Source of the DNA: an uncultured bacterium
GTDB taxonomy: Bacteria; Verrucomicrobiota; Kiritimatiellia; RFP12; CAIWXQ01
Length of the DNA: 64,000 nt
Assembly: GCA_903861045.1 (NCBI GenBank)
Contig: CAIOST010000353.1
Location: 4,097-68,096 of the forward strand
Reading direction: 5' to 3'
Of the stretch, positions 29,558 to 54,346 are shown piece after piece. How positions within the stretch are numbered: the stretch's first letter is position 1; each line of letters starts with the position of its first letter. Below the pieces are notes generated by a model that ran no database searches, had not been told where the DNA came from, and was given only the letters and a program-made list of their open reading frames with translations. The position numbers and the translations under genes are program-made.

Positions 29558-31268
29558 CCGTGACTTCCAAGGCCGCCGCCAGCGAGGTCAAGCCGGCGCG
29601 CACTTTCATCAATCCAACATTTTTAAGAGGAATCATGCCATTACGCACGGCCAGCGTGCGCAGTTCGCCGGTGGTTCGGCCATGTACGATGGCCTCACGG
29701 ATCACATCGTCCACCGTCAGCACTTCCATGATGGCGCCGCGCCCCTTATACCCGGTGCCATTGCAGCGCGGGCACCCTGTGGGAAAGTAGACCGGCGCCC
29801 CATCAAAGAACTGCGGCTCAATATGGTTGATCTCAAAGACATCCGCAGCCACGGTCCCCTCCTTCTTACAAGCGCTACACAGCTTGCGATAGAGACGCTG
29901 TGCCTGGGCAAGAATGAGGGAAGACCCGATCATAAACGGCGGCACCCCCATATCCACCAGACGGGCAATCACGCCCGCCGCGTCATTGGTGTGCAGCGTG
30001 CTGAGCACCAAATGGCCGGTGAGGGCCGCCTTGATCGCAATATCGGCCGTCTCCCCGTCGCGAATCTCGCCCACCAGAATGATATCCGGATCCTGGCGCA
30101 GCACGGAACGCAAGACGGAGGCAAACGACAGTCCCACCTGTGTGTTCACATGCACCTGATTGATGCCGGCAATCTGATATTCGACCGGATCCTCCGCCGT
30201 GACAATGTTCACATCCGGCTTGTTCAGGTCCTGCATGCAGGAGTAGAGCGTGGTGGTTTTGCCGCTACCGGTCGGCCCGGTTACCAGCAGCACACCATGC
30301 GGTTGCTCAATGGCGTACTGCATGGCTTTGTATGCGAAATCATCCAGCCCCAACGAGCCCAAACCGGGTGCCAGATTTTGTTTATCCAGGATACGCATGA
30401 CGATCTTCTCACCAAAGACCGTGGGTAGAATGCTGACACGGATATCCACTTCCCGGCCAAAGGCCTTGATCTTGAAGCGCCCATCCTGCGGGAGACGCCG
30501 CTCGGCGATATCCAGATCCGACATAATCTTGATGCGGGAGACGAGTGCGTTGTGATACGCCTTGGGCGGACTGGGGCGCTCCACCAAGGACCCGTCAATC
30601 CGGTAGCGCAGCCGCGAACACTTCTCCAGAGCCTCAATGTGGATATCGCTGGCCTTCGTGCGCAGCGCCTCGATCATAACCATGTTCACCATGCGGATGA
30701 CCGGCGCGCCCTCGGCGGTTTCCAGCGTCTTCTCGAGGCTCTCCTCGTGCCCATCCTTGGCGCTGTCGACCTCGATTTCCCCGTCCCCGGCCTTCATCAC
30801 ATCTTCCAGATCCAGGTTCTGGCCGCTGGAAGCCGCATTCGCAGCGGTCGCCCGCCCCAGCAGATCGTTGATCTCCTTCTCGGCTGCCACCAGGGGAATC
30901 ACCAGCAGGCTGGTGGTCATGCGCAGGTTTTCGATGATATGGATATCAAACGGATCTGCCAGCGCGACCAGCAGATTCTTACCGTTCTTCCCCACCGGGA
31001 AAGCGCGCGTGCGCTCCCAGATCTCGCGGGGTTGCAGCTCCAATAGGGCGGGGTCCGGTATGAAATGCGCCAATTTGATCGGCGGCATCCGCACATACTC
31101 TGCCACCGCCAGCGTCATGTCGTCCTGCGAGACCAACTGGCTGTGCAACAGCCGCTTCTCAATCGGACCTGAATCCTGCGAAGTGACCGTCTCGAGCTTC
31201 TCCCGCGTGATCACACCACGCTGGAGCAGGATATCCACCACGCCGCTACCGCTTGACTCGTTTGCCAT
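29547..31268 (-). CDS. GspE/PilB-family type II/IV secretion ATPase
   Basis: N-terminal T2SSE_N-like domain. Walker A VTGPTGSGKTT, Asp box, Walker B ILVGEIRD, His box LTGHLVLSTLHTN, and a tetracysteine motif (CSACK...CPRC). Start set at MANESS (31268, GGAGG SD). Confidence 0.9.
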   Translation of the reverse strand: MANESSGSGVVDILLQRGVITREKLETVTSQDSGPIEKRLLHSQLVSQDDMTLAVAEYVRMPPIKLAHFIPDPALLELQPREIWERTRAFPVGKNGKNLLVALADPFDIHIIENLRMTTSLLVIPLVAAEKEINDLLGRATAANAASSGQNLDLEDVMKAGDGEIEVDSAKDGHEESLEKTLETAEGAPVIRMVNMVMIEALRTKASDIHIEALEKCSRLRYRIDGSLVERPSPPKAYHNALVSRIKIMSDLDIAERRLPQDGRFKIKAFGREVDIRVSILPTVFGEKIVMRILDKQNLAPGLGSLGLDDFAYKAMQYAIEQPHGVLLVTGPTGSGKTTTLYSCMQDLNKPDVNIVTAEDPVEYQIAGINQVHVNTQVGLSFASVLRSVLRQDPDIILVGEIRDGETADIAIKAALTGHLVLSTLHTNDAAGVIARLVDMGVPPFMIGSSLILAQAQRLYRKLCSACKKEGTVAADVFEINHIEPQFFDGAPVYFPTGCPRCNGTGYKGRGAIMEVLTVDDVIREAIVHGRTTGELRTLAVRNGMIPLKNVGLMKVRAGLTSLAAALEVTGGE

Positions 31269-31291
31269 GCCGAAACCTCCTACGTGATAAT

Positions 31292-31307
31292 GGCAGGAAT
31301 TGTGCCA
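31292..31307 (-). promoter_or_regulatory. candidate sigma-54 (-24/-12) promoter upstream of the GspE/PilB-like gene
   Basis: The minus strand reads TGGCACAATTCCTGCC with canonical GG/GC spacing. It ends about 24 nt upstream of the ATG at 31268, which would give a very short leader containing the SD. Confidence 0.4.
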
Positions 31308-31425
31308 GGTGTCACGCCGCCGCCGCACGACCGCGCCTGCCCGCTCTTGCAAAGATTGCAAAAAAGACAAAAGCAGGCTTGAATCTGCGCCGCCCAAAGA
31401 ACAGAATAGCTAATTACAAACACCA

Positions 31426-41249: not shown

Positions 41250-41343
41250 GGAGAGGTGGCCGAGCCTGGTTTAAGGCGCAGCACTGGAAATGCTGTGTGC
41301 TCCTAACGGGGCACCGGGGGTTCGAATCCCTCCCTCTCCGCCA
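41250..41343 (+). tRNA. tRNA-Ser (anticodon GGA)
   Basis: GGAGAGG/CCTCTCC acceptor stem and anticodon stem-loop CAGCA-CTGGAAA-TGCTG (GGA). Long variable arm, GGTTCGAATCC T-arm, discriminator G and encoded CCA; 94 nt. Confidence 0.9.
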
Positions 41344-41388
41344 TTTTTTCCCGCGGACTGCACGCCAACCGACTGCTCGACGCCTGCG

Positions 41389-42304
41389 ATGCACGAAGAC
41401 ACGGCACATTCAGTCAATGTTCGGGTCGCCGACCGGGATCTCAAGTATTATATTTTCGACTGGGATGACAACATCCTGCACATGCCCACGCGCATTCATC
41501 TGGAAAAGCGGCAACCGGATGGCACCTGGGCGCCGCACTTGGTCTCCACCTCCATCTTCAGCCTGATCCGGCACGACGCACAGCACTATCGCCCCCCGCA
41601 CGGCAACTGGAGCGAAGCCTTTGTGGAGTTCCAGGACTGCGCCGGGACCTCCGAAAGTCAATTTCTGCGTGACGCGCGCGAGGCCATCCTGCGCATCCTG
41701 AACGGCATGGAGTTGCCCCCCCCCAGCTTCCAGACCTTTCGGCAAACCCTCGTGGAGGGACGCCTGTTTGCGATTGTTACCGCACGCGGTCACGCCTCGG
41801 CCACGCTGCGCACCGGGGTCCGGCTTTTTGTGGACCTGGTGCTCACCCCCGACGAACGCAACCGCATGATGGCCAACCTGCATGGCTACCGCGCCTGCTT
41901 CGACCAGGTTAACGAGTTTGGCACGGACGAGGAAGAGCTGACCTACTATTTATCGCTGAACCACTATTATGCCGTCACCTCCCCCGGTTTTTCGCGAGCA
42001 GTTAGCCGCACCAACCCCTGGCGCCGAGTCGGCCGAGCAGCGCAAACAGTTCGCGGTGCGCTCATTTGTAGAGCACATTATTGCAATTCTGGCCCGCACG
42101 CAGGAGGGGCGCCTGCGCCATGCCGTGAGCGTAGGGTTCTCGGATGACGACCCTGGCAACGTCAAGGCCGTGCAGGATTACATCCAGTCGGAACTCGGCC
42201 GCGAGTTCCCCGGCGTACGCTTTGTGGTATACGACACCTCGGACCGAACGTTGGAGAAAGGACGCAAGATTGTGGTCAGCGGACAAATGGACTTGGGTTT
42301 GTGA
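41389..42304 (+). pseudogene. HAD-like (DxD motif) hydrolase-family gene interrupted by a frameshift (or assembly indel)
   Basis: The frame-1 ORF from MHEDTAH contains YYIFDWDDNILHMPT (HAD motif I-like) and AIVTARG. The conserved-looking C-terminal part (...QRKQFAVRSFVEHIIAILART...VGFSDDDPGNVKAV...) continues in frame 2 (ORF 41969..42304). Both frames are open between 41960 and 42147. C5 and T5 runs at 41981-41992 are candidate indel sites. Confidence 0.5.
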
Positions 42305-42450: not shown

Positions 42451-42466
42451 TGGCCCGCTTCCTGCT
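42451..42466 (+). promoter_or_regulatory. candidate sigma-54 (-24/-12) promoter upstream of the TPR/ExbBD operon
   Basis: TGGCCCGCTTCCTGCT has GG and GC in the canonical register. It ends about 92 nt upstream of the ATG at 42559. The -24 box is imperfect (TGGCCC). Confidence 0.3.
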
Positions 42467-42558
42467 ATAAATCAACGCGCATGGGCATGGTGGCGTGAAC
42501 CGGGTGGTGCCGCAAGCCGACCAGGAATAACGGAACACGGGATACAGGCTGGAAACGC

Positions 42559-45500
42559 ATGGTAACAACAACATCCTTCGCAACCGGGTTGACGTCCATC
42601 CGCAACCACCGCTTGGTCCGCCCTCCATCCTTCTGCCTGCTCGGCCTGTTGACCGCGGCGCTGCTGCTGCCAGGCGCACATCAAGCGCGGGCCGACGAGC
42701 GCAATATCACGGCCGCCTCCTCCCTGATGGATCGCGGACAGTATGGCGATGCCATCAAACTGCTGGAAAAGTCTCTGGAGCAACAGGGCCCGGACAATTC
42801 CACGACCGAATTGCGTCTGATCGGCGAGTGCCAGTTCCTGCTCAAGGACTACGGCAAGGCGCGCACCGCATTTTCCCGCGCCCTAGCCAATGCGGACAGC
42901 CTCTCGCCCAAGGCCCGCATCGTCTGCGAGTCACGTCTGGCCATTATTGACTACCGGCTGGGCGACAAGAAGGGCGCCGATGAACGCATCGAAAACTTCA
43001 TCCGCAAATACCCGAAGGACAGCCGAGTCGGCACCATGGCCGTGATCCGCATCCGGATAACGCAGGAAGACAGCACCATCCCCCTGGCGGAAAAGATTCG
43101 CAAGGTCGAGGAGCAGCACAAGGTCATTGCCGCGGATAAGGAGGCCTTCGGCTATTACAACGCGGTGCTGGCGGCCCAGGCGCTGGGCGACCTGTACATC
43201 GAGAACAAGCAGGAGGATAAGGCGGTCGGGCTGCTGGTCACGGCCGTGCACGAGATGCGCGGCCTGATCACCGAACTCAAAGGGAAAGGCAAGGCCATCC
43301 CGTCCGATCTGGGGCAGGGCGTGGACGGCATGGCGCTGCAGATCGCCCGCTACAACATGTCCCGGAAGGAATGGGGCGAGGCCAAGAAATGGCTGGAGAA
43401 CGTTGACTATGCGGAGGACCTGAAGGCCCAGGCCAAGTACATGCTGGCCCAAATCGCCTACCAGCGGCGGGAGTTCGCCGAGGCGCTCTTCCAGCTCCCC
43501 GACGAGGTCGTGGCGCGCATCGCGGAAGGCGATACCAAGAACGCCATGTACCTGCTGATGGCGTTCTGCTGGCGTGAACCGGCCACCGCCAATGCGGAAA
43601 AGGCCAAGGAGGCCCTCAAAAAGATCCCGCCCGCCTCCTCTTCCTATTGCCAGGCCCAGCAAACCCTGGGTGACATCTACCGCGAACAGAAGGACCACGA
43701 GCGCGCCGAACCGTGCTACCTGAACGCGCTCAATGACAAGGAGAAGCGCTTCGCTGCCGCCGCGCGCTTTGGCCTGGGAGTCGGCTTCTACGAACGCGCC
43801 ACCACCATCCTGCTGATGGGGGCGACGGACGAGATGAAGAAGCAGCGCGAAGCCCTGTGCAAGAAGTCCGCCGAGCACTTCCAGGAGTTGCTCACGAAGT
43901 ACCCCAATACGGACCTGGCCCGGCAGGCCAAGCCCATGATCGAGAAGCTGCAGAACTGGGGGATCATCGTGGTGGTGGAAGCCACGGAGAAGGAGCAGAT
44001 CGCTGCCAAGGAGAAACTGATTGCCGAAAACCCCAACTCCTTCCCGGCGGCACAGGCGATGCTCTGGCTGGCGCAGCTCCATGCCAAGGCCGTGCAGGAC
44101 CCCAAAACCAAGAACCTGCTCAAGGCGCCCAACTGGGAGGCCTGCGCCAAGGCCTGCCTGCCGCTCGTCCAGAGCAAGACACCCTTCGCCAATGTCACGC
44201 CCGAGTGGTGGCGGGACAACCGCTGCATCGCCCTCTTCCTCCTGGCGCGCGCCGAACTCGGCAGCATCCCGCCCGGCGCCAGCGCCCGGCGTCTCCGCCC
44301 CAACCAGGCGGAACCGGTGCGTATCAAGACCGGGGGAAGCGCCGTGCGCGCCCTCCAAAACCTGACCGAGGCCCAGACTCTGGTCACCCCGCAGACCAAT
44401 CCGGACGTCACGCGTAACCTCGAGTTCGCCACGATCGAGGCCATGCTGAAGTCGCCGGACGCCGTCGTGCGCAGCCAGGGCGAGAAACGCTACGCCGCCG
44501 TGGAATCCAAGTACAGCCTCGACCCCGTCTACCAAAAACTGGCCATCATCACCGCCGACTGGCAGGACGAGCAAGGGTTCTACGAGGACGCCGGCCGAAT
44601 CTACCGCAGTGTGGCGCGCAAGGCGACCATGGACCGCGACCAGTCTATCCACCTGCTCCATCTGGCCGGCGCCAGCTACGGCCGCGGCGGGCGCGCCCTG
44701 ATTGAGAAGCGCGAGAAGAACATCACCCTCGGCATCCAGATCCTGCCGCGCATCGTGCTGCGCACCGGCACCACCAACACCCAGGAGGCCCTCTCGGCCT
44801 TAAAGCGCACCAAGCTCATCCCGTGGGAACCGACCGGACCGACCCTTTCGGCTGCGGAGGCCGTCGCGCGCATCTCCCGCGAGTTCAGCGTCCCGCTCGT
44901 CTGGTCGCCGGAAGTCGCGCCGGGCTCCGTCGCCGCGTTCCTCGCGCAGACCACGATCCCGCGCGAAACCGTCGCTTCGTGGCGCCAATCCATGACCTTT
45001 GAGAAAGCCCTATACAACGTCCTTGACCGGAAGGAGTTCTCCGTGGTGGCCGACATCGGCCTGTCCGGCGGCACCCTCACCTTCATTCCTAAGCTGGCCG
45101 AACTCGGTGACACCGACGATCAGGTCCTGGAGATCGTCGCCCGCCAGCGGGAACGCTTTGCGCCGCTGGCGCGGATGTACGGCTCGTTTGCCACCGTACA
45201 CGGCAAGCCGGCCATGATGTTCAACGTAATCAAGCGGGTGGAGGAACTCACCGGCGCCCGGATCATGTGGGGCGAGGGGATCCAGAAGGACGAGGCGCTG
45301 TCGCGCGACTTCCCCTCCTTCCCCGGCGTGGCGCCCGCCAGCAACCTCACGGTGCGCGCCGTGCTGGACAAGACCCTGGAAGCCGTGGGATTGCGCTACG
45401 AGGTCGTCCCCTGCGACCACAGCCGCGAGCTGATCATGGAGTCCATCTCCTGCTTCGACGAACTGCGCAAGTTTGGCGCGGACACCACCTACGCCGAGGA

Positions 45501-47088
45501 CGCGATGTTCAACATCGCCGTCAATCTCTATGTCATCCGGGACTACGCCAAGATGAAGCTCCTGCTGAAGGAGTATCTCAAGACCTACGACAACCCCTCC
45601 TTTGCGCACTATTATGACGCCTGCTACTGGCTGGGGCGCCTATTCGAGATCGAGCGCAACTACCGCGAGGCCCTCAAGTACTACGGCATGGCCGCCGACG
45701 AGAAGATCATCATCTTCCACTCCGACTCCGGCGCCCCCACCCCGACGATCGAGGAACTCAAGGCGCGCCTGAGCTACGATACGCTCTACAACCTCTCCCG
45801 CAAGGGGAACGGCTCGTTCACGGATGCCACGATCGACCGGGAGTTCCTGTCCTTCGTCCGGTTCCACACCAACCTGGAGATCCTCATCGACCCCTCGGCC
45901 AAGGAGTTCGCGCGCTCCATTAACCGCCCCTCGTTCGTCGGCGTCCCCTGCCTCAACCTGATCCACGAGGTGCTGGTGGCCAACGGGCTGGACCTGCGCA
46001 CGGAGAACGGCGACAAGGGCGTGGCCGAGAAGGCCTACTACCGCATGGCCCTGGTCTACAAGGAGGACAACCTGATGCGCGAGGCGCTGGAGAACGTCCA
46101 GACGCTCCTCACCCGCTTCCCCCAAAGCCCCCGGCGCGTGGATGCCCTCTCGCTGAAGCTGGAGATCTACAAGGGGCTGCGTAACTACAGCGAGGTGCTC
46201 AAGACGCTCGAACAGCTCAAGGCCTGCGCCGGCGGCCGGATCGCCCCCTTCCAGCTCGACTACGAGATCGGGCGCGTCTACTTCGACCTGTGCAACTATA
46301 CCAACGCCATGGACAGCTTCGTGCAGTCCATCGGCGGCACGCAGAATCCGCAGGACTGGCTGCCGATCCGCAGCGCCCTGGCCCAGACCTACCTGCGCAT
46401 GCCGGGGCGCGAACCGGACGCGCTCGCCCTCTACCGCCAGAACATCACCCTCGAGACCGCCCCCCTCGCCCAGACCATCAACGCCATGACGATTTACTGG
46501 CTCGAATACGCGCTCCTCCCCGCGCCGCGCACCCGCAAACCGGTCCCGGCGGCCGAGGCCGAGTTCATGACCCTCTATACAAAGGCCTCGGACAGCGAGC
46601 GCGCCGATCTGAGCCAGGGGGATGTGGCCCGCGCCACTTGGATCTATTACCTCCTGGGACGGATGGACCTGGTGGACAGCAACAACGTGGCCGCCCTGGA
46701 GAAGTTTAACGCGGCCGGGTCCTCGCCGGATGCCTACCTCTCCGGCGACGCGCTCTACCAGGCCGCCCTGATCCATGCCGGGCGCGCGGAGTTCGACAAG
46801 ACCCGCGAATGCCTCGAGCACCTCCTCTTCACCACCAAGTCAGTCGAGGCCTCCGTCAAGGGCACCTATGAACTGGCACGCTGCCAGAAAACCCTCGGCA
46901 ACCTCGATGCCGCCTTCCAGCGGTACGACGAACTCGTCACCCGCTACCCGGTCTCGCCGTATGCGGATCTAGTCCGGCAGGAACCGCTCTACCTGCAGCG
47001 CAAACCCGCCGTCCCGCTGCCCCCCGCCGCCACACCCGCAGCCGCCTCGCCGGCCGCCACCAACACCGGAGGAGCCCGCTCCCCATGA
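42559..47088 (+). CDS. giant secreted/anchored TPR-repeat protein (1509 aa) with a non-TPR central insertion
   Basis: N-terminal hydrophobic signal/anchor (FCLLGLLTAALLLPGAHQARA). Numerous TPR-like helical repeats (…YGDAIKLLEKSL..., ...YREALKYYGMAA..., ...LDAAFQRYDELVTRYPVSPYA). Strong GC3 coding signal over the full length. Confidence 0.8.
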   Translation: MVTTTSFATGLTSIRNHRLVRPPSFCLLGLLTAALLLPGAHQARADERNITAASSLMDRGQYGDAIKLLEKSLEQQGPDNSTTELRLIGECQFLLKDYGKARTAFSRALANADSLSPKARIVCESRLAIIDYRLGDKKGADERIENFIRKYPKDSRVGTMAVIRIRITQEDSTIPLAEKIRKVEEQHKVIAADKEAFGYYNAVLAAQALGDLYIENKQEDKAVGLLVTAVHEMRGLITELKGKGKAIPSDLGQGVDGMALQIARYNMSRKEWGEAKKWLENVDYAEDLKAQAKYMLAQIAYQRREFAEALFQLPDEVVARIAEGDTKNAMYLLMAFCWREPATANAEKAKEALKKIPPASSSYCQAQQTLGDIYREQKDHERAEPCYLNALNDKEKRFAAAARFGLGVGFYERATTILLMGATDEMKKQREALCKKSAEHFQELLTKYPNTDLARQAKPMIEKLQNWGIIVVVEATEKEQIAAKEKLIAENPNSFPAAQAMLWLAQLHAKAVQDPKTKNLLKAPNWEACAKACLPLVQSKTPFANVTPEWWRDNRCIALFLLARAELGSIPPGASARRLRPNQAEPVRIKTGGSAVRALQNLTEAQTLVTPQTNPDVTRNLEFATIEAMLKSPDAVVRSQGEKRYAAVESKYSLDPVYQKLAIITADWQDEQGFYEDAGRIYRSVARKATMDRDQSIHLLHLAGASYGRGGRALIEKREKNITLGIQILPRIVLRTGTTNTQEALSALKRTKLIPWEPTGPTLSAAEAVARISREFSVPLVWSPEVAPGSVAAFLAQTTIPRETVASWRQSMTFEKALYNVLDRKEFSVVADIGLSGGTLTFIPKLAELGDTDDQVLEIVARQRERFAPLARMYGSFATVHGKPAMMFNVIKRVEELTGARIMWGEGIQKDEALSRDFPSFPGVAPASNLTVRAVLDKTLEAVGLRYEVVPCDHSRELIMESISCFDELRKFGADTTYAEDAMFNIAVNLYVIRDYAKMKLLLKEYLKTYDNPSFAHYYDACYWLGRLFEIERNYREALKYYGMAADEKIIIFHSDSGAPTPTIEELKARLSYDTLYNLSRKGNGSFTDATIDREFLSFVRFHTNLEILIDPSAKEFARSINRPSFVGVPCLNLIHEVLVANGLDLRTENGDKGVAEKAYYRMALVYKEDNLMREALENVQTLLTRFPQSPRRVDALSLKLEIYKGLRNYSEVLKTLEQLKACAGGRIAPFQLDYEIGRVYFDLCNYTNAMDSFVQSIGGTQNPQDWLPIRSALAQTYLRMPGREPDALALYRQNITLETAPLAQTINAMTIYWLEYALLPAPRTRKPVPAAEAEFMTLYTKASDSERADLSQGDVARATWIYYLLGRMDLVDSNNVAALEKFNAAGSSPDAYLSGDALYQAALIHAGRAEFDKTRECLEHLLFTTKSVEASVKGTYELARCQKTLGNLDAAFQRYDELVTRYPVSPYADLVRQEPLYLQRKPAVPLPPAATPAAASPAATNTGGARSP

Positions 47089-50000
47089 ACATGCCGTCCT
47101 TCTTCCCACGCCCCTGGCTGGCCGTCGTGCTACTGGCGGCCCTCCCGCTGGCCGCCTATGCCGTCTCGCCGGAGGAACTGGTCAGCGCCGCCGAAAGCGC
47201 CGAGAAAGCCGGCGCGCTCACGCAGGCCGCCGACCTCTATAAGCAATTCCTCGCTGAAAACAAGGAGCACATCCAGCGCTCCCTGGTGCTCTACCGCCTC
47301 TCCCTGGTGCAGGAGAACCAGGGGCTGTCGGAAGATTCCATGGCCAGCCTGAAGCAGTCCGTCGCCATCCCCGCCGACAAGAACGGCGAGAAGCACCGCC
47401 CCGACGCCTACATGCGCCTGGCCAAGCTGCAGGCCCACAACAACCGGTACGCTGAGGCCGCCGACACCCTGCAACTCCTCTTCAAGGAGGGCGCCGCCTT
47501 GTACGAGGACGAGGCTCAGAACCTCCGCGCCGGCTACCTGACCCTCATGGGTAAGTATGACGAAGCCGCCATCCTGTTCAACATCCTGCGCAACAAGGCC
47601 AACTCAATCTACGCCAAGGAGGCCGCCTACAAGATGGCGATTGTCTGGCTGAAGGCCGGCAACGCTGAGATGGCCAAGAACGCCATTGAGGAGTTCGCCC
47701 AGCGCTACCCCACCCACCCGAAGGTGGTGGAGCTCTTCGTGAGCATGGCCCGCAGCTATTTCGAGAAAAAGGACTACAAGAACGCCGCTGAACTCTCCCG
47801 CCAGGTGATCGCCGACTACAAGGAAACCCCGGAGGCCATGGAAGCCGCCCTCATCGTGGCCCTCTGCTACCGCGAAGCCAACAAGCTGGAACTCGCCGTG
47901 GACCGGCTTGAGGATGTTTCGCGCATGCCGCAGGCCGCACGCAACGCCGAAATGGTCAGCGAGTCGCTCTTCGAGGCTGCCCAGATCTGCCGCAAATCGC
48001 TAACCAATAAGATGGAACGGGCGATCGACCTCTACACCCGTGCCGCCTCCGTCGCGCGCATCAACCCGTCGGAACGCCAGGTCCTGATCCTCGAGCAGAG
48101 CCTCTATTACGCCGCCGAATACTTCTACCAGCGCGAGCAGTGGAGCTCCGCCTACGACCTCTATGCCCAGTTGCGCGCTATGAAGAGCAGGCTGAACCTG
48201 ACGAGCCGGATCATGCAGTGCAAGGCCAAGATGAGCGCCGACGGCAAGGCCGGTCTGGAGGTTGATAACGAGGATGACTTAGCCCACATCCGCAAGCAGA
48301 TCGCCGACAACCCCGGTGCGCTCATCGCCCTGCAGTATGAACTCCTGCTGCTCGACAAAAAGGTCCAGAAGACGTTCGCCTCCGTCTCCGACCGGCAGGG
48401 CATCGGCTGGGGCGCCGTGCAGATCCTGATTGACGAGTACAACGAACTCCTCAAGAAATACCCGGGCGACGTGCTCAACCAGGAAGAGATGCGCCCCGTG
48501 TTGCGCCTGCGCATGGGCAACCTCTACGCCTATGCCCAACCCTCCGACCCCGCCCGCACCTCCAAGCTCAAGACCGGGATCGAACTGATCGAGCAATCGC
48601 TGCAGGAGGCCCCCCAGGCGCTGTTCCGCGTGGAAGCGCTGCAGTCCCTGGCCTTCCTCTACGCCAACAGCGCCGAGAACAAGAAGGCCTTCGAGACCCA
48701 GAAGAAACTCCTGGAACTCACCGGCCAGGACCCGACCAGCTCGCAGCGGACCGCCCCGGAACTCCTGCGCCAGATGATGCCACTCATCCGGAGCGACGAC
48801 CTGACCGATGACGCGATCGCAACCATGCAGCAAGTCGTCGCCAAGGGCCCCGAGAACGGCCCGGAGGTGCGCCAAGCGCGTTTTAATCTCGCGGAACTCG
48901 CCTTCATGAAGAAGCGCTACCAGGAATCTATCAAGCTCTACAAGGAGTTCATCAAGCGCTACGGCCCTCCGCAGGACCCGGACGGCCGCGTCTCCGCATT
49001 ATGGAAGAAGCCCGCAGGCGTGGATGAAGTGCTGGACCAGGTCTACGAATGCGGCTACCGCGTGGTGCAATGCTGGCGCGCCTCGACCCAACCCTACGGC
49101 AGCAACGCGCTGGCCGCCTGCACGTGGATGATCGAAAACCAGAACTACCTGAACCCACGCATCCCGGAAGTGCTCTATTATGTCATTGATCGCGGCGAGA
49201 ACCCGGCCAAACTCCCGAACGACAAGAAGGACGAACTGGCCCGCGCCTTCTGGACGCGCATGGTCAACCCCTCCCTCGACTTCGGCTCCAAGGCCTTCAA
49301 GGCGGGGTTCTACGGCTGGATGCACGACGGACGGGCCGCTCCCTTCGTGCGCGTGGCCCTCATGAAGGCGGCCCAGCTCTCCGCCGAGATCAACAAGCAC
49401 CAGCGCGCCGCTGAGATGTACCAGAGTTTCGTAGAGATCTACGCCCCGGAGAACCCCAAGCTCCGCAACGCCGACGGCTTCCCCCTCTTCCCCCGCGACG
49501 ACATGTACTACATGGCATCCTACGCCCTCGGACGCGAACTGGTGCTCGACAAGAACTTCGTGTCGATGGTGAAGGCCTTCAACATCTACGTGGATGACAT
49601 GCGGGAATCGAAGTTCCGGGCCGCCGCCCTGCAGCTGATGGGGCACTATGGCACGCAGGCCGAACTGTTCAACGAAGCCGCAGAGGCCTATGCCGCCCTG
49701 CTGGACGAATACTCGCCCGCCGTCACCAACACCGCCGCGACCGTCACGAACATCGCCAGCCGCGTCTACCTCAAGCCGGAGCAGCGCCTGCGCAAGAATA
49801 GCAAATGGGATGGCTACCGCATGCCGCTCCCGGACAAGATCGACATCGGCGATGTCCGCTACGGGCTCGGCCTCCTCTACTGGAAGAAGGAACAATGGCC
49901 CCTGTGCATCACCGCCCTGCAGCCCTTCCTCATCGATCCGATCCTGGCGAGGTCCCCCAGCCGCGCGGAGGCCCTGTTCATGCTGGGACGCTGCCAGATG

Positions 50001-50582
50001 AAGACGGGTCTGTTCACCGCCGGCCAGCTCACCATGGAGCGCAGCCTCAAGGACCACCCCGACTACAAGGCCGCCGAGGAGATCTACCTGGACCTGATCC
50101 GCTCCCACGTCGACACCGCCAACTGGCCGGCCGTGACCCGCACCTACCAGGACTACCTTGTCCGGAACAAGGAAGGGCGCTACCGGTCGCACATGGACCT
50201 CTACCAGGCCGTGTCCCAGCTCAACGGCACGAACGAGGCGACCGGGGAGCGAACCCTGATCGACCTCTCCAAGGCCGAGACGTTTGAGGACGTCAAGGCC
50301 GAGGCCTACTACCGCCTCGCAGTGCGCAAACTGGGCGAGAAGACCCCACCCGACCAGGAGGGTGCCCTCCCCCTGCTGCGCAAAAGCATCGCGGCGTATC
50401 CGCTGGCACCGGCGCTGATGGAGGCCGCGCGCTGCGCCAAGGGGACCAAGAACTTTGCCGCAGCACGGGAATTCCTGGACCAGTTGGTCCGGCAGTTCCC
50501 CAAGGCGGATCAAACCCTGATCGACCAGGTGCAGCAACTGCGCCGGCAGATCCAGATCGCAGAGATGGAGGCGCGGCGCTAG
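47085..50582 (+). CDS. giant secreted TPR-repeat protein (1165 aa)
   Basis: Signal peptide (WLAVVLLAALPLAAYA) and TPR-like repeats throughout (…ALTQAADLYKQFL..., ...KDYKNAAELSRQVIADYKETPEA...). ATGA overlap with the upstream TPR gene. Confidence 0.8.
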   Translation: MNMPSFFPRPWLAVVLLAALPLAAYAVSPEELVSAAESAEKAGALTQAADLYKQFLAENKEHIQRSLVLYRLSLVQENQGLSEDSMASLKQSVAIPADKNGEKHRPDAYMRLAKLQAHNNRYAEAADTLQLLFKEGAALYEDEAQNLRAGYLTLMGKYDEAAILFNILRNKANSIYAKEAAYKMAIVWLKAGNAEMAKNAIEEFAQRYPTHPKVVELFVSMARSYFEKKDYKNAAELSRQVIADYKETPEAMEAALIVALCYREANKLELAVDRLEDVSRMPQAARNAEMVSESLFEAAQICRKSLTNKMERAIDLYTRAASVARINPSERQVLILEQSLYYAAEYFYQREQWSSAYDLYAQLRAMKSRLNLTSRIMQCKAKMSADGKAGLEVDNEDDLAHIRKQIADNPGALIALQYELLLLDKKVQKTFASVSDRQGIGWGAVQILIDEYNELLKKYPGDVLNQEEMRPVLRLRMGNLYAYAQPSDPARTSKLKTGIELIEQSLQEAPQALFRVEALQSLAFLYANSAENKKAFETQKKLLELTGQDPTSSQRTAPELLRQMMPLIRSDDLTDDAIATMQQVVAKGPENGPEVRQARFNLAELAFMKKRYQESIKLYKEFIKRYGPPQDPDGRVSALWKKPAGVDEVLDQVYECGYRVVQCWRASTQPYGSNALAACTWMIENQNYLNPRIPEVLYYVIDRGENPAKLPNDKKDELARAFWTRMVNPSLDFGSKAFKAGFYGWMHDGRAAPFVRVALMKAAQLSAEINKHQRAAEMYQSFVEIYAPENPKLRNADGFPLFPRDDMYYMASYALGRELVLDKNFVSMVKAFNIYVDDMRESKFRAAALQLMGHYGTQAELFNEAAEAYAALLDEYSPAVTNTAATVTNIASRVYLKPEQRLRKNSKWDGYRMPLPDKIDIGDVRYGLGLLYWKKEQWPLCITALQPFLIDPILARSPSRAEALFMLGRCQMKTGLFTAGQLTMERSLKDHPDYKAAEEIYLDLIRSHVDTANWPAVTRTYQDYLVRNKEGRYRSHMDLYQAVSQLNGTNEATGERTLIDLSKAETFEDVKAEAYYRLAVRKLGEKTPPDQEGALPLLRKSIAAYPLAPALMEAARCAKGTKNFAAAREFLDQLVRQFPKADQTLIDQVQQLRRQIQIAEMEARR

Positions 50583-50666
50583 CCCGCCACGCAAAAACAA
50601 TCACCGGACGGACCACACGCTTTGTGGCGGATGGTCCGGCTGAAAAGGAAAAAGGAGAATAGAGGC

Positions 50667-51806
50667 ATGAAGGTGCGATTCATCACGACAGCAGTAATCT
50701 GGGCGGCCACCCTCGCGGCTGCCGCCACCCTGCAGGCACAAACCCCGGCCGCCGGCAAAGCCGCCGCCACGCCCGCCCTCAAGGACGCCAAGGAAGTCGC
50801 CCTGGACGACTCCTTGCCCGGCGTCACCAAGAATGACTTGGCCGACGGCGCCAAGGAGAACGTGGAAGCCCTGCTGAAAGGCGAAGGAGGCGAAAAGACC
50901 GGCGACGGGAAACTCTTCACGATCAAGACCGACGACAACATCAAAACCCTGAGCGTCGGCGACCTCTACAAGAACGAGGAGACCGCCTTCAAGGTCACGG
51001 CCATCCCCCGGCAGAGCGACAAGGGGGGCCTCTTCACGGTCACACGCATCGCCGGCCAGAGCGACCCCCAGCGCCGCTGGACCAAGGTCGCCGGCAACGG
51101 CCCGCAACAGATCATCACCCGCACCACCCTGCTGGACCTCTACATCCAGGGCGGCCCATTCCTACACCCCATCGCCCTGCTCTTCGTCATCATGGTAATC
51201 CTGAGCATCAACGGCTGCCTGGTCTACCGCCGCAAGACCCAGTGCGCCCCCGAGTTCGTCAGCGCCAGCGAAGCAGCCCTGCGCCAGGGCGACCTGAAGA
51301 AGTTCGAGGACCTCGCCCGCACCAACCGCGGGTTGCTCCCCTTCATCTGCCGGCACATGATCCTGGACCATGAGACCTCCAGCATTGCCGACATCCGCAG
51401 CCGCGTCGAGGTCGCCACCATGGTCCACATCAACCGCCTGCGCATCCCGATCCGCGCTATGAACCTGATCGCCGTGGCCGCCCCGCTGCTCGGCCTGCTC
51501 GGCACCATCGTCGGCATGGTGCTCGTCTTCGAGGGCGTGGCCGGTACCAGCGGCGCGGCCAAGGCCTCGATCCTCGCGGCCGGTATCCGCGTGAAGCTCT
51601 TCTCCACGGCCTCAGCCCTCATGGTCGCCATCCCGGCCCTCTTCATCTATTTTATCTTTAACCAGAAACTGGGCGTGATCATCCACGAGTGCGAACTGAT
51701 CCACGAACGGTTCCTGACCCTGCTGGCCCAGCGCCGGCGCGCCACCGGCACGGCGGAGAACAAGCACGGGGCGGTTTCGCAACGCCGGGACGCCGACGAA
51801 GAATAA
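50667..51806 (+). CDS. MotA/TolQ/ExbB proton-channel family protein with signal peptide and N-terminal periplasmic extension
   Basis: The C-terminal half has three TM segments and the family signature ...NLIAVAAPLLGLLGTIVGMVLVFEGV... The N-terminus is MKVRFITTAVIWAATLAAAATLQAQ plus about 140 extra residues. GGAG SD. Confidence 0.85.
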   Translation: MKVRFITTAVIWAATLAAAATLQAQTPAAGKAAATPALKDAKEVALDDSLPGVTKNDLADGAKENVEALLKGEGGEKTGDGKLFTIKTDDNIKTLSVGDLYKNEETAFKVTAIPRQSDKGGLFTVTRIAGQSDPQRRWTKVAGNGPQQIITRTTLLDLYIQGGPFLHPIALLFVIMVILSINGCLVYRRKTQCAPEFVSASEAALRQGDLKKFEDLARTNRGLLPFICRHMILDHETSSIADIRSRVEVATMVHINRLRIPIRAMNLIAVAAPLLGLLGTIVGMVLVFEGVAGTSGAAKASILAAGIRVKLFSTASALMVAIPALFIYFIFNQKLGVIIHECELIHERFLTLLAQRRRATGTAENKHGAVSQRRDADEE

Positions 51807-51872
51807 CGCCGTACCATCATTACGATTGCCCCCACCCGCGTGCAGACACCTGCCGCCTAAGGAGAACCGAAC

Positions 51873-52301
51873 ATGGGCTTTCAACACGAAGCCGAAGAAG
51901 TCATGCACATTGACATGACGCCCATGGTGGACGCCATCTTCGCCATCATCCTCTTCCTGCTGGTCACCTCGTCCTACCTCGAATCCCTGGAGCAGGACGT
52001 TAACATCGCCCTCCCCAGCATGGGCACGAAGATCAAGGTGGTCAAGATCCCGGCGCGCCCCATCACCGTCAACGTGCGCTACCTGCCCGGTGGCAACGCC
52101 TACTACCATGTGGAAAACCAGAAGCTGACGCTCACCATGCTGACCATCAACATGACCCGCGCCCGGGTCCGTGACGTAGATCAATCCGTCGTGATCCGCG
52201 GCGACAAGGACGTCAAGTGGGACCACATCGCCAAGGTGATGGGATGCTGCGCCCAGGCCGGCATCACCAAGGTGTCCGCCAGTCTGCAAGTGAATGAATA
52301 G
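51873..52301 (+). CDS. ExbD/TolR-family biopolymer transport protein
   Basis: 142 aa. IDMTPMVDAIFAIILFLLV contains the conserved TM aspartate. The periplasmic domain has ...VVIRGDKDVKWDHIAKVMGCCAQAGI... Confidence 0.85.
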   Translation: MGFQHEAEEVMHIDMTPMVDAIFAIILFLLVTSSYLESLEQDVNIALPSMGTKIKVVKIPARPITVNVRYLPGGNAYYHVENQKLTLTMLTINMTRARVRDVDQSVVIRGDKDVKWDHIAKVMGCCAQAGITKVSASLQVNE

Positions 52302-52313
52302 GAAGGGCGCACC

Positions 52314-54074
52314 ATGAACCAAGGGCCACAAAACGGGGCGCAGCGGCCGCTGTCGGGCATGATCGAGCACGACTCGATGTTCGACAAGCGGTCGATCCTG
52401 ATCGGCATCGGCCTCGCCGCGCTCGTGCTGACCACGGCAACCGTCTGGAAGGTTGCCTATCACGACCACTCCAAGAAACTGGACAAAATAAAGGATATGG
52501 TGTTTGAGCCCAAAGAACCGCCCAAGGAGAAAGTCGAGGTCAAGCCCCCCCAGCAAACCCTCATTCGCCAAGAACTGCCCGACCGTCCGGAGATGACCGA
52601 AAAGGAGGCCGAGACGCCCAACATCCAGATGACCACCGTTATCAAGGATGTGGCCGCCCCGGAAGAGGTGGTCAAAAGTACGACCATGGACGTGCAGGAC
52701 GTCAAGATTGATTTCGAAAAACTGGACATCAAAGAACCCATGGACAAGGCCGATGAGACCGCGGCGGTCAAGGAGGAGGCCTTGACGCCCATCGCCGTGC
52801 TCACAGAGGCGGCCGCCGACATCTACGCCTACAAGGAGCCCAACCCCACGGCCAAGGCGGACGCCGGACTCTTCAGCAAAGCCCCACGGCCGGGGTCCAA
52901 GACCACTGTGAAGTTGGGCGCAATCGGCCCCCAAAACGCCGACACCATCGGCGAACTCGGCCCCATGGACATCAACCTCTTCGGCACCGGCAACTCCCTC
53001 TCCGGCATGAAGCGCGCCGGATTCGAAACCCAGACCGCCGTGGACGCAGCGCTGCGCTGGCTGGCGCTGCACCAAGAGCCGGATGGACACTGGGATGCCC
53101 GTCGCTGGGATGCGGAGAGCGCCCCTTTTGACAGCTCAAATGCCACCGCCAAAGCCACCGCAAGCATCCAGAAAAACGATGGCGCGGCGACCGCCCTGGC
53201 CACGCTGGCCCTGATGGGCGGCGGCAATACCCTGCGCAAGGGCGAGTATCGCGACAACGTGCGCCGTGCGGTGCAACACTTAATCGGCGTCCAGAACACC
53301 AAGACCGGCTTCTTCAGCGAGAACATGTACGAGCATGCCATCGCCACCATTGCCATCTGCGAAGCCTTCGGCCGCGCTCCGGACGAGAAGGTCGGCCTGG
53401 CTGCCCGCAAGGCCGTGGACGCCTGCGTCAGCTCCCCCGGCAAGGACGGCGGCTGGCGCTACGCCCCCAACCCGCCCTCCAGCGACATCTCCGTAACGAG
53501 CTGGTTCCTACAGGCCCTAAAGACCGCCAAGCTCTCCAACATCAAGTTCGATCATGCGGTCTTCTCCCGCGGCGTCACCTACCTCGATCAAGTCACGCAC
53601 AACGGCGCCATGGGCAACTCCAGCGGCGCCGTGGGGTACGAATACAACCCCTCGCTGGATTATGGCAACGAAACCCCGGCCCTGACCTGCGCCGGCATGG
53701 TCATCCGGCAGTTCAACGGCATGGGTGTCAACCACCCCCTGCTGAAGAGCGCGGCGGAGATCACCAAAACCAAGCCGCCCGCCTGGAAGGAGAAGGACTT
53801 CTACCGCTGGTATTACGCCACCTATGCCATGCACAACATGGGGGGTGAATACCGCCTCTGGTGGAACAGCCGAATGCGCGAACTCCTGCTGAACAACCAG
53901 TCCAAGCAAGGCCATCAGAAAGGGAGCTGGAACCCAGAGCGCGAAAAGTGGATGCAGTCGCGCGTCATGACCACCTCCATCGGCGCGCTCTGCCTGGAAG
54001 TCTATTACCGCTACGGCGAAGCCCTCCAGAGCTTCGGCACCGTCCCGGAACTCGATGAACTGATATTCCAATAG
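52314..54074 (+). CDS. TonB-position membrane-anchored protein: TM anchor, Pro/Lys/Glu-rich spacer, C-terminal prenyltransferase/squalene-cyclase-like alpha/alpha-toroid domain
   Basis: Single TM (SILIGIGLAALVLTTATVW) and spacer EPKEPPKEKVEVKPPQQ...PDRPEMTEKEAETP. The C-terminal ~340 aa carry repeats such as ALRWLALHQEPDGHWD, VQHLIGVQNTKTGFF, GKDGGWRY, SWFLQALK and LEVYYRY. No TonB C-terminal-like segment was recognised. Starts 12 nt after the exbD-like stop. Confidence 0.7.
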   Translation: MNQGPQNGAQRPLSGMIEHDSMFDKRSILIGIGLAALVLTTATVWKVAYHDHSKKLDKIKDMVFEPKEPPKEKVEVKPPQQTLIRQELPDRPEMTEKEAETPNIQMTTVIKDVAAPEEVVKSTTMDVQDVKIDFEKLDIKEPMDKADETAAVKEEALTPIAVLTEAAADIYAYKEPNPTAKADAGLFSKAPRPGSKTTVKLGAIGPQNADTIGELGPMDINLFGTGNSLSGMKRAGFETQTAVDAALRWLALHQEPDGHWDARRWDAESAPFDSSNATAKATASIQKNDGAATALATLALMGGGNTLRKGEYRDNVRRAVQHLIGVQNTKTGFFSENMYEHAIATIAICEAFGRAPDEKVGLAARKAVDACVSSPGKDGGWRYAPNPPSSDISVTSWFLQALKTAKLSNIKFDHAVFSRGVTYLDQVTHNGAMGNSSGAVGYEYNPSLDYGNETPALTCAGMVIRQFNGMGVNHPLLKSAAEITKTKPPAWKEKDFYRWYYATYAMHNMGGEYRLWWNSRMRELLLNNQSKQGHQKGSWNPEREKWMQSRVMTTSIGALCLEVYYRYGEALQSFGTVPELDELIFQ

Positions 54075-54082
54075 CCCCCCCC

Positions 54083-54210
54083 GCCATTCTCATTATGGAC
54101 TTATGGCGGCGGGTCCGGCGGGTCCACCCTACCAATACTGTGTGAAATCGAAGAATTATGGCAGGTAGGGCGGGGCCGCCGGACCCGCTGAGTGCCATAT
54201 TGAGAATGGC
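54083..54210. repeat. 128-bp imperfect palindromic (REP/MITE-like) element
   Basis: The outer arms GCCATTCTCATTATGG (54083-54098) and CCATATTGAGAATGGC (54195-54210) are complementary except for one base. The inner arms 54105-54133 and 54164-54188 are complementary over 13+7 nt. The right inner arm recurs at 732-760. Confidence 0.8.
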
Positions 54211-54346
54211 TGGTCAGCCCGGTTCCCTATTGACAGCGGGGCCGCAAGATACGACACTGTCCGGCGATACGAAGCCCTAGCCGCGCGGGCTGGTCCGCAC
54301 GGCCGTCGGCACCGTACCGGAGTCTACGCCGCATGAAGTACCTGCT

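Follow-up and report, generated by a model that had tools for sequence, protein, structure and literature searches.

A five-gene module of PVC bacteria combines a TolQR-type motor, a toroid protein in the TonB/TolA position and two giant TPR proteins

In the Agl-Glt and Nfs machines of Myxococcus, a TolQR-like motor, TonB-like proteins and TPR proteins of large size together move or deposit surface material. For PVC bacteria, vWA "force transducers" have been proposed, in which a non-TonB output domain (vWA) is found beside TolQR-like motors with TPR genes (MBE 2025, PMC12204202). We analyzed a 64,000-nt stretch of DNA (the window) from an uncultured bacterium of the Kiritimatiellia, and the vWA transducers are the closest described precedent for the gene cluster that it contains, with the same logic and a different head domain. 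A full-text literature search found no named, characterized system with this composition, and as far as we found the five-gene machine is undescribed. The original prediction of an unprecedented composition thus holds for the gene set, but the concept of a non-TonB output had already been published for vWA in 2025, making the idea less unprecedented than first thought.

An ORF check bore out five tightly packed, co-directional genes on the + strand (42559-54074). The recomputed junctions were also as predicted, with a 4-nt ATGA overlap between g1 and g2 followed by gaps of 84, 66 and 12 nt. Of the boundaries initially given for the cluster (42451-54074), the end was correct, whereas 42451 lies in noncoding upstream DNA and the ATG of g1 is at 42559. 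No terminator-like sites were found on the + strand inside the cluster. The genes and their regions are as follows.

42559..47088, + strand: g1, giant exported TPR protein of 1509 aa (ORF, Pfam)
44701..45438, + strand: conserved central non-TPR region of g1, residues ~715-960
47085..50582, + strand: g2, giant exported TPR protein of 1165 aa, sharing ATGA with the g1 stop (ORF, Pfam)
50667..51806, + strand: g3, MotA/TolQ/ExbB-family proton-channel subunit of 379 aa (Pfam PF01618)
51873..52301, + strand: g4, ExbD/TolR-family subunit of 142 aa (Pfam PF02472)
52314..54074, + strand: g5, bitopic toroid protein of 586 aa in the TonB/TolA position (Pfam, AF2, Foldseek)
52386..52484, + strand: TM helix of g5, residues 25-57 (AF2 helix, alignment A1)
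52485..53033, + strand: disordered linker of g5, residues 58-240 (pLDDT <50, alignment A1)
53034..54011, + strand: (alpha/alpha)6 toroid of g5, residues ~241-566, with prenyltransferase/squalene-cyclase-type repeats (AF2, Foldseek)
54012..54071, + strand: C-terminal tail of g5, residues 567-586 (pLDDT ~30, conservation scan)
54080..54213, no strand: nested hairpin of 134 nt, beginning 6 nt past the g5 stop (inverted repeats I1 and I2)

The same window holds a PilB/PilC-like gene pair and a sigma-54 regulator 11-15 kb upstream of the module, as well as a GH2 gene and sugar kinase/isomerase genes. Downstream of g5, the palindromic element predicted to close the cluster exists and folds stably as RNA (-85.1 kcal/mol, z = -5.95), but it is not specific to the cluster: one 25-nt arm recurs at 732-756 in the window, indicating a dispersed repeat. 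A search for terminators found no T-tract terminator at the hairpin, which is possibly a transcript end or stabilizer.

Profile searches with Pfam returned TPR families for g1 and g2, MotA_ExbB for g3 (68.2 bits, cutoff 22.9), ExbD for g4 (66.4 bits, cutoff 25.4) and a weak SQHop_cyclase_C match for g5. The channel signature AAPLLGLLGTIVGMVLVF is present in g3, and g4 contains DMTPMVDAIF with the conserved TM aspartate. The mechanical ORF of g3 begins at a TTG (50622); the ATG start, giving 379 aa, matches an independent gene call on an identical contig. From this start, g3 consists of a cleavable-looking signal peptide, a periplasmic N-domain of ~80 aa (residues ~76-153; 50892-51125) that is conserved across 40 orthologues, and three TM helices. 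Alignment to solved TolQ/ExbB chains showed that g3 retains both pore threonines and has a valine in place of the TM3 glutamate (TolQ E173/ExbB E176). In g4, the TM aspartate D20 and P17 are invariant in 44 orthologues. The residues predicted to be functional in the motor (the ExbD aspartate and the two ExbB pore threonines) are thus conserved. Among the NCBIfam models, those of TolQ and TolR scored g3 and g4 at 58.4 and 50.8 bits and those of ExbB and ExbD lower, all far under their respective equivalog cutoffs, and the top PDB sequence matches of g3 are TolQ.

The sole Pfam match of g5, SQHop_cyclase_C, covers residues 222-340 (32.7 bits, cutoff 26.1). An AF2 model built from a 32-sequence alignment gave a TM helix (25-57), disorder (58-240) and a helical toroid (~240-567) at a pLDDT of ~85-97, and Foldseek against the PDB returned only (alpha/alpha)6 toroids (AprG, SHC, MstE, GH76, AGE-type isomerases and TEP1/C3 TED) at 10-17% identity. 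The prediction of a toroid where TonB has its C-terminal domain therefore survives; neither a TonB_C nor a TolA domain was recognizable by Pfam, NCBIfam, AF2 or Foldseek. The proposed TonB-style N terminus was confirmed in topology but not in motif. The TM helix, in which Gly31 and Trp45 are conserved, lacks the SHLS/His motif that forms the motor contact of TonB, TolA and the vWA transducers, so any contact of g5 with the motor must go through a different interface. Similarly, the proposed Pro/Lys/Glu spacer applies to the first ~45 residues of the linker (E 21%, K 16%, P 16%) but not to the remainder.

The linker of ~180 aa has a mean column conservation of 0.56 with some near-invariant positions, and its consensus motifs are F.F...EP...FELK.P.R, RP.IQMT, PIA.....ADI..Y..P.P and GELGP.NINLFGTG. 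The tail is unstructured in the model and yet the most conserved segment (mean 0.78), with a majority consensus ending in ALNSFGTAPDLDELFFQ. Identity of g5 between phyla is 41-60%, and the tail and linker motifs are conserved as strongly as the fold, which fits partner-binding peptides. Within g5, polar/aromatic clusters are invariant (WRY, SD.SVT.W, WYYATYAMHNMGG, GSW), and a motif scan of the toroid found no DxDD terpene-cyclase motif. The toroid superfamily comprises 16,679 representative clusters, and its members are often solitary (e.g., in strain SH139, locus L062) or part of multidomain giants; the domain by itself is thus not diagnostic of motor coupling.

Orthologues of g1, g2 and g3 share signal-peptide-like N termini, of the AxA type in g2, and no lipobox was found in these N termini. 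In g1, which likewise starts with a signal-peptide-like sequence, TPR arrays at residues ~50-700 and 960-1480 (many Pfam TPR families) flank a conserved non-TPR core (~715-960 and 1080-1150). Full-length g1 orthologues occur in 24+ loci at 30-57% identity. The central region (~715-960) has a mean column identity of 40% across 24 orthologues and a weak internal-repeat signal; it matched nothing in Pfam at E<=10 and no PDB profile. The matches of g2 are TPR_6 and TPR_16, and its orthologues, present in 30+ loci, adjoin g1 every time. Against the NCBIfam YbgF-like model, g1 and g2 reached 79.5 and 87.4 bits, below the cutoff of 90.1.

An exact-peptide scan recovered 67 loci, 66 of them from metagenome-assembled genomes; the sole cultured match is the distant, solitary one in SH139. 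The five genes co-occur in other PVC genomes: 28 independent PVC contigs carry the order g1-g2-g3-g4-g5, two have g3-g4-g5-g1-g2, and a further six are truncated by the contig end after g2. The contigs with all five genes come from Verrucomicrobiota (Kiritimatiellia and Lentisphaeria among them) as well as from Planctomycetota (among them Phycisphaerae, Tepidisphaerales and Thermoguttaceae). Just one close paralogue is solitary (L012, with 10 kb of upstream flank visible). The distribution is patchy, several genomes contain two complete paralogous modules, and no further flanking family is conserved as a sixth gene. On balance, g1-g5 probably constitute a single module that is conserved, self-contained and found only within the PVC superphylum. 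The ExbB-ExbD-toroid triad was also seen in two other architectures, namely, a simple form (L075) and secretin-GspE-MORN-ExbB-ExbD-FHA-toroid (L002 and L072, two independent contigs); further triads lie in the Pirellulaceae loci L064, L066, L067 and L069. The secretin link is limited to the FHA subfamily, which lacks g1 and g2.

The explanation that we favor, with some reserve, is a Ton/Tol-like 5:2 proton motor with g5 as its periplasm-spanning output and two exported TPR scaffolds. Possible but unlikely is that the module is the proton motive force-dependent periplasmic part of a system for import or retention of large glycans, in bacteria that would largely lack SusC/TonB-dependent transporters. 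The toroid would bind the glycan and the TPR giants would scaffold periplasmic enzymes, in analogy or homology to the "periplasmic protein complex" of Akkermansia MUL1. This would agree with the carbohydrate-acting toroids among the best Foldseek matches (GH76, AGE-type isomerases, unsaturated glucuronyl hydrolase, AprG with GlcNAc), with paired modules, which are commoner for substrate-specific than for housekeeping systems, with the secretin and T2SS/T4P-type ATPase directly upstream in variant loci, and with the GH2, sugar kinase/isomerase and PilB/PilC-like genes sharing the window. In published work, A. muciniphila mul1A (Amuc_0544) is called a mucin transport gene associating with CAZymes, its neighbor Amuc_0546 is listed as a "biopolymer" transporter and MUL1 is said to resemble a Sus system. 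However, MUL1 synteny is reported to be missing from aquatic Akkermansiaceae, and none of the 120 g5 homologues listed is an Akkermansia-named protein. Moreover, no conserved CAZyme or outer membrane channel adjoins the five-gene form, and no glycosidase catalytic signature is readily recognizable in the toroid.

Less likely still is a Tol-Pal-like system, in which the motor, a TolA analogue and CpoB-like TPR proteins would coordinate outer membrane and peptidoglycan processes (maintenance or division) in atypical envelopes. The preference of g3 and g4 for TolQ/TolR is in line with this, as are the YbgF/CpoB-like units of g1 and g2 just below the family cutoff, the BamD-like units of the same two proteins and a variant locus directly upstream of mraZ-rsmH-ftsI-murE-murF. 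This dcw adjacency is, however, one case, and the equivalog scores are all far beneath the cutoffs. No TolB, Pal or OmpA-like genes are linked to the module, CpoB has ~260 aa against 1200-1500 aa for the TPR giants, and patchiness with two copies per genome is unlike a core division function.

We regard as very doubtful a machine for surface-structure assembly, secretion or gliding of the Agl-Glt/Nfs type, or an accessory of a secretin/T4P-like apparatus. The parallel with Agl-Glt/Nfs lies in the kinds of protein involved, namely, a TolQR-like motor, a bitopic transducer and large TPR proteins, and would be by analogy; the FHA-toroid variants on two contigs with secretin, MshEN/T2SSE ATPase and MORN genes, and the PilB/PilC-like pair and sigma-54 regulator upstream in the window, point the same way. 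Nevertheless, the five-gene form has no linked Glt/Nfs outer membrane components, no NCBIfam motility/secretion model reached its cutoff, the matches to Tgl, PorW/SprE and PilW (g1) and Tgl (g2) are generic TPR matches far below cutoff, and the secretin is confined to the subfamily without g1 and g2. Finally, it is highly improbable that g5 is an enzyme or binding protein merely sharing the operon, while the motor works for the TPR proteins or for a partner encoded elsewhere: the huge superfamily with its many solitary or giant-embedded members, the missing SHLS motif and invariant clusters that might surround a binding pocket or active site are compatible with this, but three architectures preserve the gene order ExbB-ExbD-toroid and its close spacing (12 nt in this module), a TM anchor with a conserved 180-aa linker is a transducer layout superfluous in a simple periplasmic enzyme, and DxDD is absent.

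In the favored proton motor with a toroid output, g3 and g4 would form a TolQ/ExbB-TolR/ExbD-type 5:2 motor in the inner membrane, and g5 would fill the role played elsewhere by TonB or TolA; the conserved adjacency of the genes suggests that force passes from motor to g5. The short N terminus of g5 would be cytoplasmic (N-in), its single TM helix would dock onto the motor, and its flexible ~180-residue linker would bear conserved docking motifs. The exported TPR solenoids of g1 and g2 would serve as periplasmic scaffolds and probably capture these linear motifs and the C-terminal tail. The periplasmic (alpha/alpha)6 head may bind a ligand or a partner molecule, for which glycans, lipids of the isoprenoid type and proteins are the most plausible candidates. 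The physiological role may lie in the handling of glycans or lipids, in uptake or in the assembly of the envelope. Proton flow would pull or remodel cargo held by the toroid or the TPR proteins at or near the outer membrane. Against this reading stand the missing SHLS/His motif of g5, the valine at the TM3 glutamate position of g3 and the lack of an outer membrane partner gene in the module. Overall, the recurrence of the module across Planctomycetota and Verrucomicrobiota, in dozens of genomes of uncultured members, argues for a real envelope machine in these bacteria.

The five co-directional genes of the predicted cluster occupy 42559-54074 on the + strand, as follows.

42559-47088, + strand: g1, giant exported TPR protein of 1509 aa
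47085-50582, + strand: g2, giant exported TPR protein of 1165 aa
50622/50667-51806, + strand: g3, ExbB/TolQ-like protein with alternative starts (379 aa from the ATG at 50667)
51873-52301, + strand: g4, ExbD/TolR-like protein
52314-54074, + strand: g5, bitopic toroid protein

Their tight packing was borne out by the ORF table: g1 and g2 overlap by 4 nt (ATGA), and the later gaps measure 84, 66 and 12 nt, g5 beginning 12 nt past g4. The cluster had been drawn from 42451, which falls within the upstream spacer; the true start of g1 is the ATG at 42559. For g3, gene calling done independently on a metagenome contig of identical sequence chose the ATG at 50667, giving the 379-aa protein. Profile searches agreed with all five assignments, returning TPR for g1 and g2, MotA_ExbB for g3, ExbD for g4 and a partial SQHop_cyclase_C match for g5. 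Promoter and terminator scans of the region gave signals at background level.

The genes flanking this five-gene module are housekeeping genes unrelated to it. Upstream lie genes for glycogen phosphorylase and an ABC ATPase, with a hypothetical ORF, and downstream a cyclophilin followed by ParE/ParC-like topoisomerase subunits. Neither the hypothetical ORF nor the cyclophilin is kept beside the module in the loci of other genomes. The following features were also recorded.

810-3706: fucose-isomerase-like/FGGY sugar kinase pair
10000-12384: BamA (Omp85, with POTRA domains)
12398-13879: DnaB helicase
21956-24505: GH2 glycosidase
26865-31397, - strand: sigma-54 response regulator, T2SS-F/PilC-like platform protein and MshEN+T2SSE (PilB/GspE-like) ATPase
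41290-42147, + strand: 285-aa hypothetical ORF directly upstream of the module, no Pfam match

BamA, DnaB, the GH2 glycosidase and the sugar kinase pair are an ordinary chromosomal setting for a glycan-degrading PVC bacterium. The group at 26865-31397 is located 11-15 kb upstream of the module, and the same kind of ATPase, together with a secretin, adjoins ExbB-ExbD in variant loci whose toroid protein carries an FHA domain.

A palindromic element had been described as closing the cluster. Nested inverted repeats are indeed present at 54080-54213, beginning 6 nt beyond the g5 stop, and form a hairpin 134 nt long (folding energy -85 kcal/mol, z = -5.95), which may serve as a transcript end or stabiliser. 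The 25-nt hairpin arm GGTAGGGCGGGGCCGCCGGACCCGC was found again 53 kb away, at 732-756, without its inverted partner. This repeat looks like a dispersed REP/MITE-like element, and it is no part of the machine.

Both motor proteins belong to the expected families. g3 matched MotA_ExbB (PF01618) over residues 236-342 with 68.2 bits (cutoff, 22.9) and aligned with solved TolQ/ExbB chains, while g4 matched ExbD (PF02472) with 66.4 bits (cutoff, 25.4). The transmembrane aspartate predicted for g4, Asp20, is invariant in 44 orthologues, as is Pro17. In g3, the AP.LGLLGT..GM segment and the Thr of TM3 are kept in 40 orthologues, and the alignment to the solved chains showed that both pore threonines (TM2 and TM3) are retained. 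At the position of the TM3 glutamate (E173 in TolQ, E176 in ExbB), the g3 family has a valine with Arg and Lys on either side (51600-51640). The nearest NCBIfam models of g3 and g4 are TolQ and TolR, and all equivalog cutoffs were missed by far (for g3, TolQ TIGR02796 at 58.4 versus 221 and ExbB TIGR02797 at 32.7 versus 206.2; for g4, ExbD at 34.7 versus 216). Furthermore, g3 has a signal-peptide-like N terminus and, ahead of TM1, a periplasmic domain of ~80 residues (residues ~76-153; 50892-51125), which is conserved in orthologues and matched no Pfam family. Five copies of this domain would crown an ExbB-like pentamer.

A homologue search with g5 turned up 245 relatives, of which about 95 are full-length, at 41-82% identity (41-60% between phyla). 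They come from metagenome bins of Verrucomicrobiota, Planctomycetota, Phycisphaerae, Thermoguttaceae and Lentisphaeria, and their annotations go no further than "hypothetical", "terpene cyclase/mutase family" or "prenyltransferase/squalene oxidase repeat-containing". We modeled g5 with AlphaFold2 using a 32-sequence alignment (A1). The model comprises a TM helix (residues 25-57), a disordered region without confident structure (58-240), an all-helical domain with a pLDDT of about 85-97 (240-567) and an unstructured tail (567-586). Foldseek against the PDB gave 34 matches at E<=1e-3, exclusively toroids, at 10-17% identity and, for single-domain targets, a target-normalised TM score of about 0.6-0.66; they include AprG, squalene-hopene cyclase, MstE, GH76 mannanases, AGE-type sugar isomerases and TEP1/C3 thioester domains. 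All being (alpha/alpha)6 toroids, they confirm the predicted toroid fold but point to no specific family. The sole Pfam match of g5 is the partial SQHop_cyclase_C hit (32.7 bits, residues 222-340). Neither TonB_C (PF03544) nor the TolA C-terminal domain (PF06519) was found in g5 by Pfam or NCBIfam at E<=0.01, and the C-terminal domain is modeled as a toroid, as had been anticipated. An exhaustive profile search showed the superfamily of the toroid domain to be very large, with 16,679 representative clusters at E<=1e-3 and, at E<=1e-30, still 6,495. Clustered at 50% identity, the complete g5 architecture reduces to about ten representatives.

The N-terminal part of g5 is only partly TonB-like. 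It has the bitopic N-in layout, the TM helix and the extended linker, and its gene directly follows the exbB-exbD-like pair, an order kept in more than 30 loci. However, alignment A1 and a motif scan detected no SHLS-type His/Ser motif in the TM helix, where only Gly31 and Trp45 are conserved among the 32 sequences. Together with the Glu-to-Val replacement in g3, this implies that any interface between the two proteins would be unlike those of the solved TonB/TolA complexes. The linker had been described as a Pro/Lys/Glu spacer, which holds for its first ~45 residues and not for the remainder. Over its full length, A1 shows no fewer than five short motifs to be conserved; the first is the block F.F...EP...FELK.P.R, MVFEPKEPPKEKVEVKPPQQTLIR in the window protein. 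The tail (A1 majority consensus ...FGTAPDLDELFFQ) is the best-conserved segment of g5, with a mean column conservation of 0.78 versus 0.70 for the toroid. Conserved peptides within disordered regions are expected to be docking sites, and the TPR proteins co-inherited with g5 are obvious candidates to bind them.

Both g1 and g2 gave numerous TPR family matches in Pfam and contain YbgF/CpoB-like and BamD-like TPR units according to NCBIfam, scoring just short of the YbgF/CpoB TIGR02795 cutoff of 90.1 bits (g1, 79.5; g2, 87.4). CpoB/YbgF itself has ~260 aa, with a coiled coil and a single TPR domain. The orthologues of g1 and g2 are full-length and conserved end to end, at 30-57% identity; for g1, tblastn recovered at least 24 of them in the loci examined. 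In g1, residues ~715-960 (44701-45438) and ~1080-1150 (~45796-46008) are conserved segments other than TPR, in which the pattern "...L..vL...GL.f.i" recurs and recalls modules of the STN/secretin-N0 type. Searches of the g1 core for such modules gave no match in Pfam at E<=10 or in a PDB profile search. Pairwise hhalign among the putative modules was weak (probabilities of 14%, 80% over 24 columns and 0.2%), and a single-sequence AlphaFold2 model of residues 740-960 had a pLDDT of 35.

To determine how far the module is conserved, we took one genome per species, from 185,579 species in all, and looked for exact matches to a pair of invariant g5 peptides. This yielded 67 loci, in the PVC group only, 66 of them in metagenome-assembled genomes and one in the cultured strain SH139. 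We then searched the loci with the five window proteins by tblastn. The order g1-g2-g3-g4-g5 was recovered in 28 independent contigs, so the five-gene set is syntenic elsewhere, and g3-g4-g5-g1-g2 in 2. A further 6 contigs end just after g2, and others are shortened more. Among close relatives with the full 10-kb upstream flank, partners are missing solely at locus L012, the genome of which has a complete module at L028. All-against-all clustering of neighbouring ORFs detected no sixth conserved gene near the module; additional neighbourhood "families" turned out to be shadow ORFs inside g1-g5 and were discarded. Precomputed annotations of 3 loci gave the same picture. In a distance tree, g5 falls into two deep clades, and three bins hold one complete module from each (pairs L053/L039, L006/L030 and L007/L031), which indicates an old duplication. 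The paralogous modules of one genome probably have different targets.

The toroid protein also occurs in other settings. A g5 sub-family with an N-terminal cytoplasmic FHA domain was found without g1 and g2 in 2 independent contigs (first two lines), and a third locus has a related arrangement.

L002 (=L009), 3055-19355: secretin, MshEN/T2SSE ATPase, (AAA), MORN, ExbB, ExbD, FHA-toroid, very large protein
L072, 1522-15493: secretin, MshEN/T2SSE ATPase, (AAA), MORN, ExbB, ExbD, FHA-toroid, very large protein
L073, 206-14090: ExbB-ExbD-FHA-toroid, YdjY-like protein, second toroid (416 aa), then mraZ-rsmH-ftsI-murE-murF

The very large protein ending the L002 and L072 loci has 2123 aa and no Pfam domain. 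At L073, a single case, the toroid genes are immediately upstream of the division/cell-wall cluster. A distant g5 relative (32% identity) forms a bare ExbB-ExbD-toroid triad at L075, and another distant one adjoins a TPR-ExbB-ExbD-ExbD cluster. In several loci of Pirellulaceae, ExbB-like genes lie upstream of distant toroids. Other relatives are solitary, including the distant one of strain SH139, the sole cultured match.

Overall, three findings support the original prediction of a machine of the Ton/Tol kind that differs in its output domain: gene order and spacing do not vary, the ExbB-ExbD-toroid triad turns up in three architectures, and g5 has the layout of a transducer (TM anchor, long linker, globular head). 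We read the module as a 5:2 proton motor whose transducer is not TonB, and it is deeply conserved among PVC bacteria that have not been cultured. For its function, we lean towards a generic machine of motor, toroid transducer and TPR scaffold. We infer contact between g5 and the motor, binding of the TPR giants to linear motifs of g5, and any identity proposed for the ligand or partner of the toroid.

A full-text search of a literature library found no system coupling ExbB/ExbD with toroid, prenyltransferase or squalene-cyclase-like proteins, in line with the earlier impression that this composition was undescribed. The nearest described counterpart of the module is the set of vWA-domain "force transducers" of PVC and other phyla (MBE 2025, PMC12204202), whose function is unknown. 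In these, a TM helix with SHLS and a disordered linker lead to a globular C-terminal domain unlike that of TonB, and their genes adjoin TPR, TolQ-like and paired TolR-like genes. As in the module, the gene for a bitopic protein comes after those of a TolQR-like motor, a TPR gene is present, and the hosts include Planctomycetes and Verrucomicrobia. However, their head is a vWA domain instead of an (alpha/alpha)6 toroid, they keep the SHLS/His motif that g5 lacks, and their loci encode a heterologous TolR pair and one TPR protein, whereas the module has one ExbD/TolR gene and two giant TPR proteins (1165 and 1509 aa). That paper makes no mention of toroid or prenyltransferase-like proteins.

The module resembles the Ton system in that ExbB/ExbD-family genes precede a bitopic N-in protein with an extended, partly Pro/Lys/Glu-rich linker, and the ExbD Asp and the ExbB pore Thr are conserved in g4 and g3. 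It differs in having no TonB_C domain, SHLS motif or linked TonB-dependent transporter, in carrying Val in place of the TM3 Glu and in the low ExbB/ExbD equivalog scores. A dedicated role in glycan uptake or processing appears doubtful. The MUL1 locus of the PVC bacterium Akkermansia muciniphila (Amuc_0543-0550; Davey et al. 2023) includes mul1A (Amuc_0544), described as a "mucin transport" gene, assigned to a "periplasmic protein complex" and with a product that associates with CAZymes; a "biopolymer" transporter gene, Amuc_0546, is adjacent. Compared by description, MUL1 offers a lead to a possible relative of the module; no Akkermansia-named g5 homologue was present among the matches listed.

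A Tol-like role in the envelope or in division is distinctly improbable. The motor is most similar to TolQ/TolR, the TPR units are CpoB/YbgF-like, and the layout of inner-membrane motor, bitopic partner and periplasmic TPR protein is shared with Tol-Pal. However, the module lacks the TolA C-terminal domain, TolB and Pal (neither tolB nor pal was found among the conserved neighbours beyond the five genes), and g1 and g2 are 5-6 times the size of CpoB.

We consider surface assembly or secretion very unlikely. The Agl-Glt gliding and Nfs spore-coat systems of Myxococcus, trans-envelope complexes that move surface material, likewise combine a TolQR-type motor with bitopic transducer-like and large TPR proteins, and many outer-membrane and lipoprotein components are encoded alongside. 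By description, their transducers (GltG/J and NfsG) have TonB-like C termini, unlike g5, and no NCBIfam match of g1-g5 pointed to either system.

That the toroid is an unrelated enzyme is hardly credible. A terpene-cyclase enzyme was rejected: the toroid shares the (alpha/alpha)6 fold and QW/PFTB-type repeats with squalene-hopene and other class II terpene cyclases and with prenyltransferase beta subunits, but terpene cyclases are double toroids with DxDD, while g5 is a single, TM-tethered and predicted periplasmic toroid with a partial Pfam match, no DxDD in a motif scan and profile scores far under the cutoffs (TIGR01507, hopene cyclase, 25.4 bits versus 431; TIGR01787, 32.6 versus 322.7). 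Zorya and other MotAB-type anti-phage defences were rejected as well, none of the five proteins having a PADLOC match (ZorA/ZorB or others).

A bolder and rather unlikely proposal is that Planctomycetota and Verrucomicrobiota use the module to couple energy to the import of large polymers into the periplasm, a device missing so far. To our knowledge, these phyla are mostly without TonB-dependent SusC-type transporters. The proton motor would pull on the toroid, a "hand" that binds glycans, along rails formed by the giant TPR proteins, and in the FHA variants passage might occur via a secretin-type outer-membrane pore. If true, the module would add to Ton and Tol a third mechanistic class of work on the outer envelope powered by the PMF.

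As far as we know, 5:2 motors of the ExbB/ExbD-TolQ/TolR kind are the sole means by which diderm bacteria supply their periplasm and outer membrane with energy, and TonB and TolA were until recently the sole "cables". The envelope biology and polymer uptake of the PVC superphylum are poorly understood, and the module offers a defined five-gene target for genetics, a motor-transducer interface without SHLS that is of interest for cryo-EM, and an entry to ligand discovery for a toroid domain of the periplasm, which PVC genomes carry in massively expanded numbers. It adds a proposed alternative "cable" that is deeply conserved, bears a toroid head and comes packaged with two giant TPR proteins.
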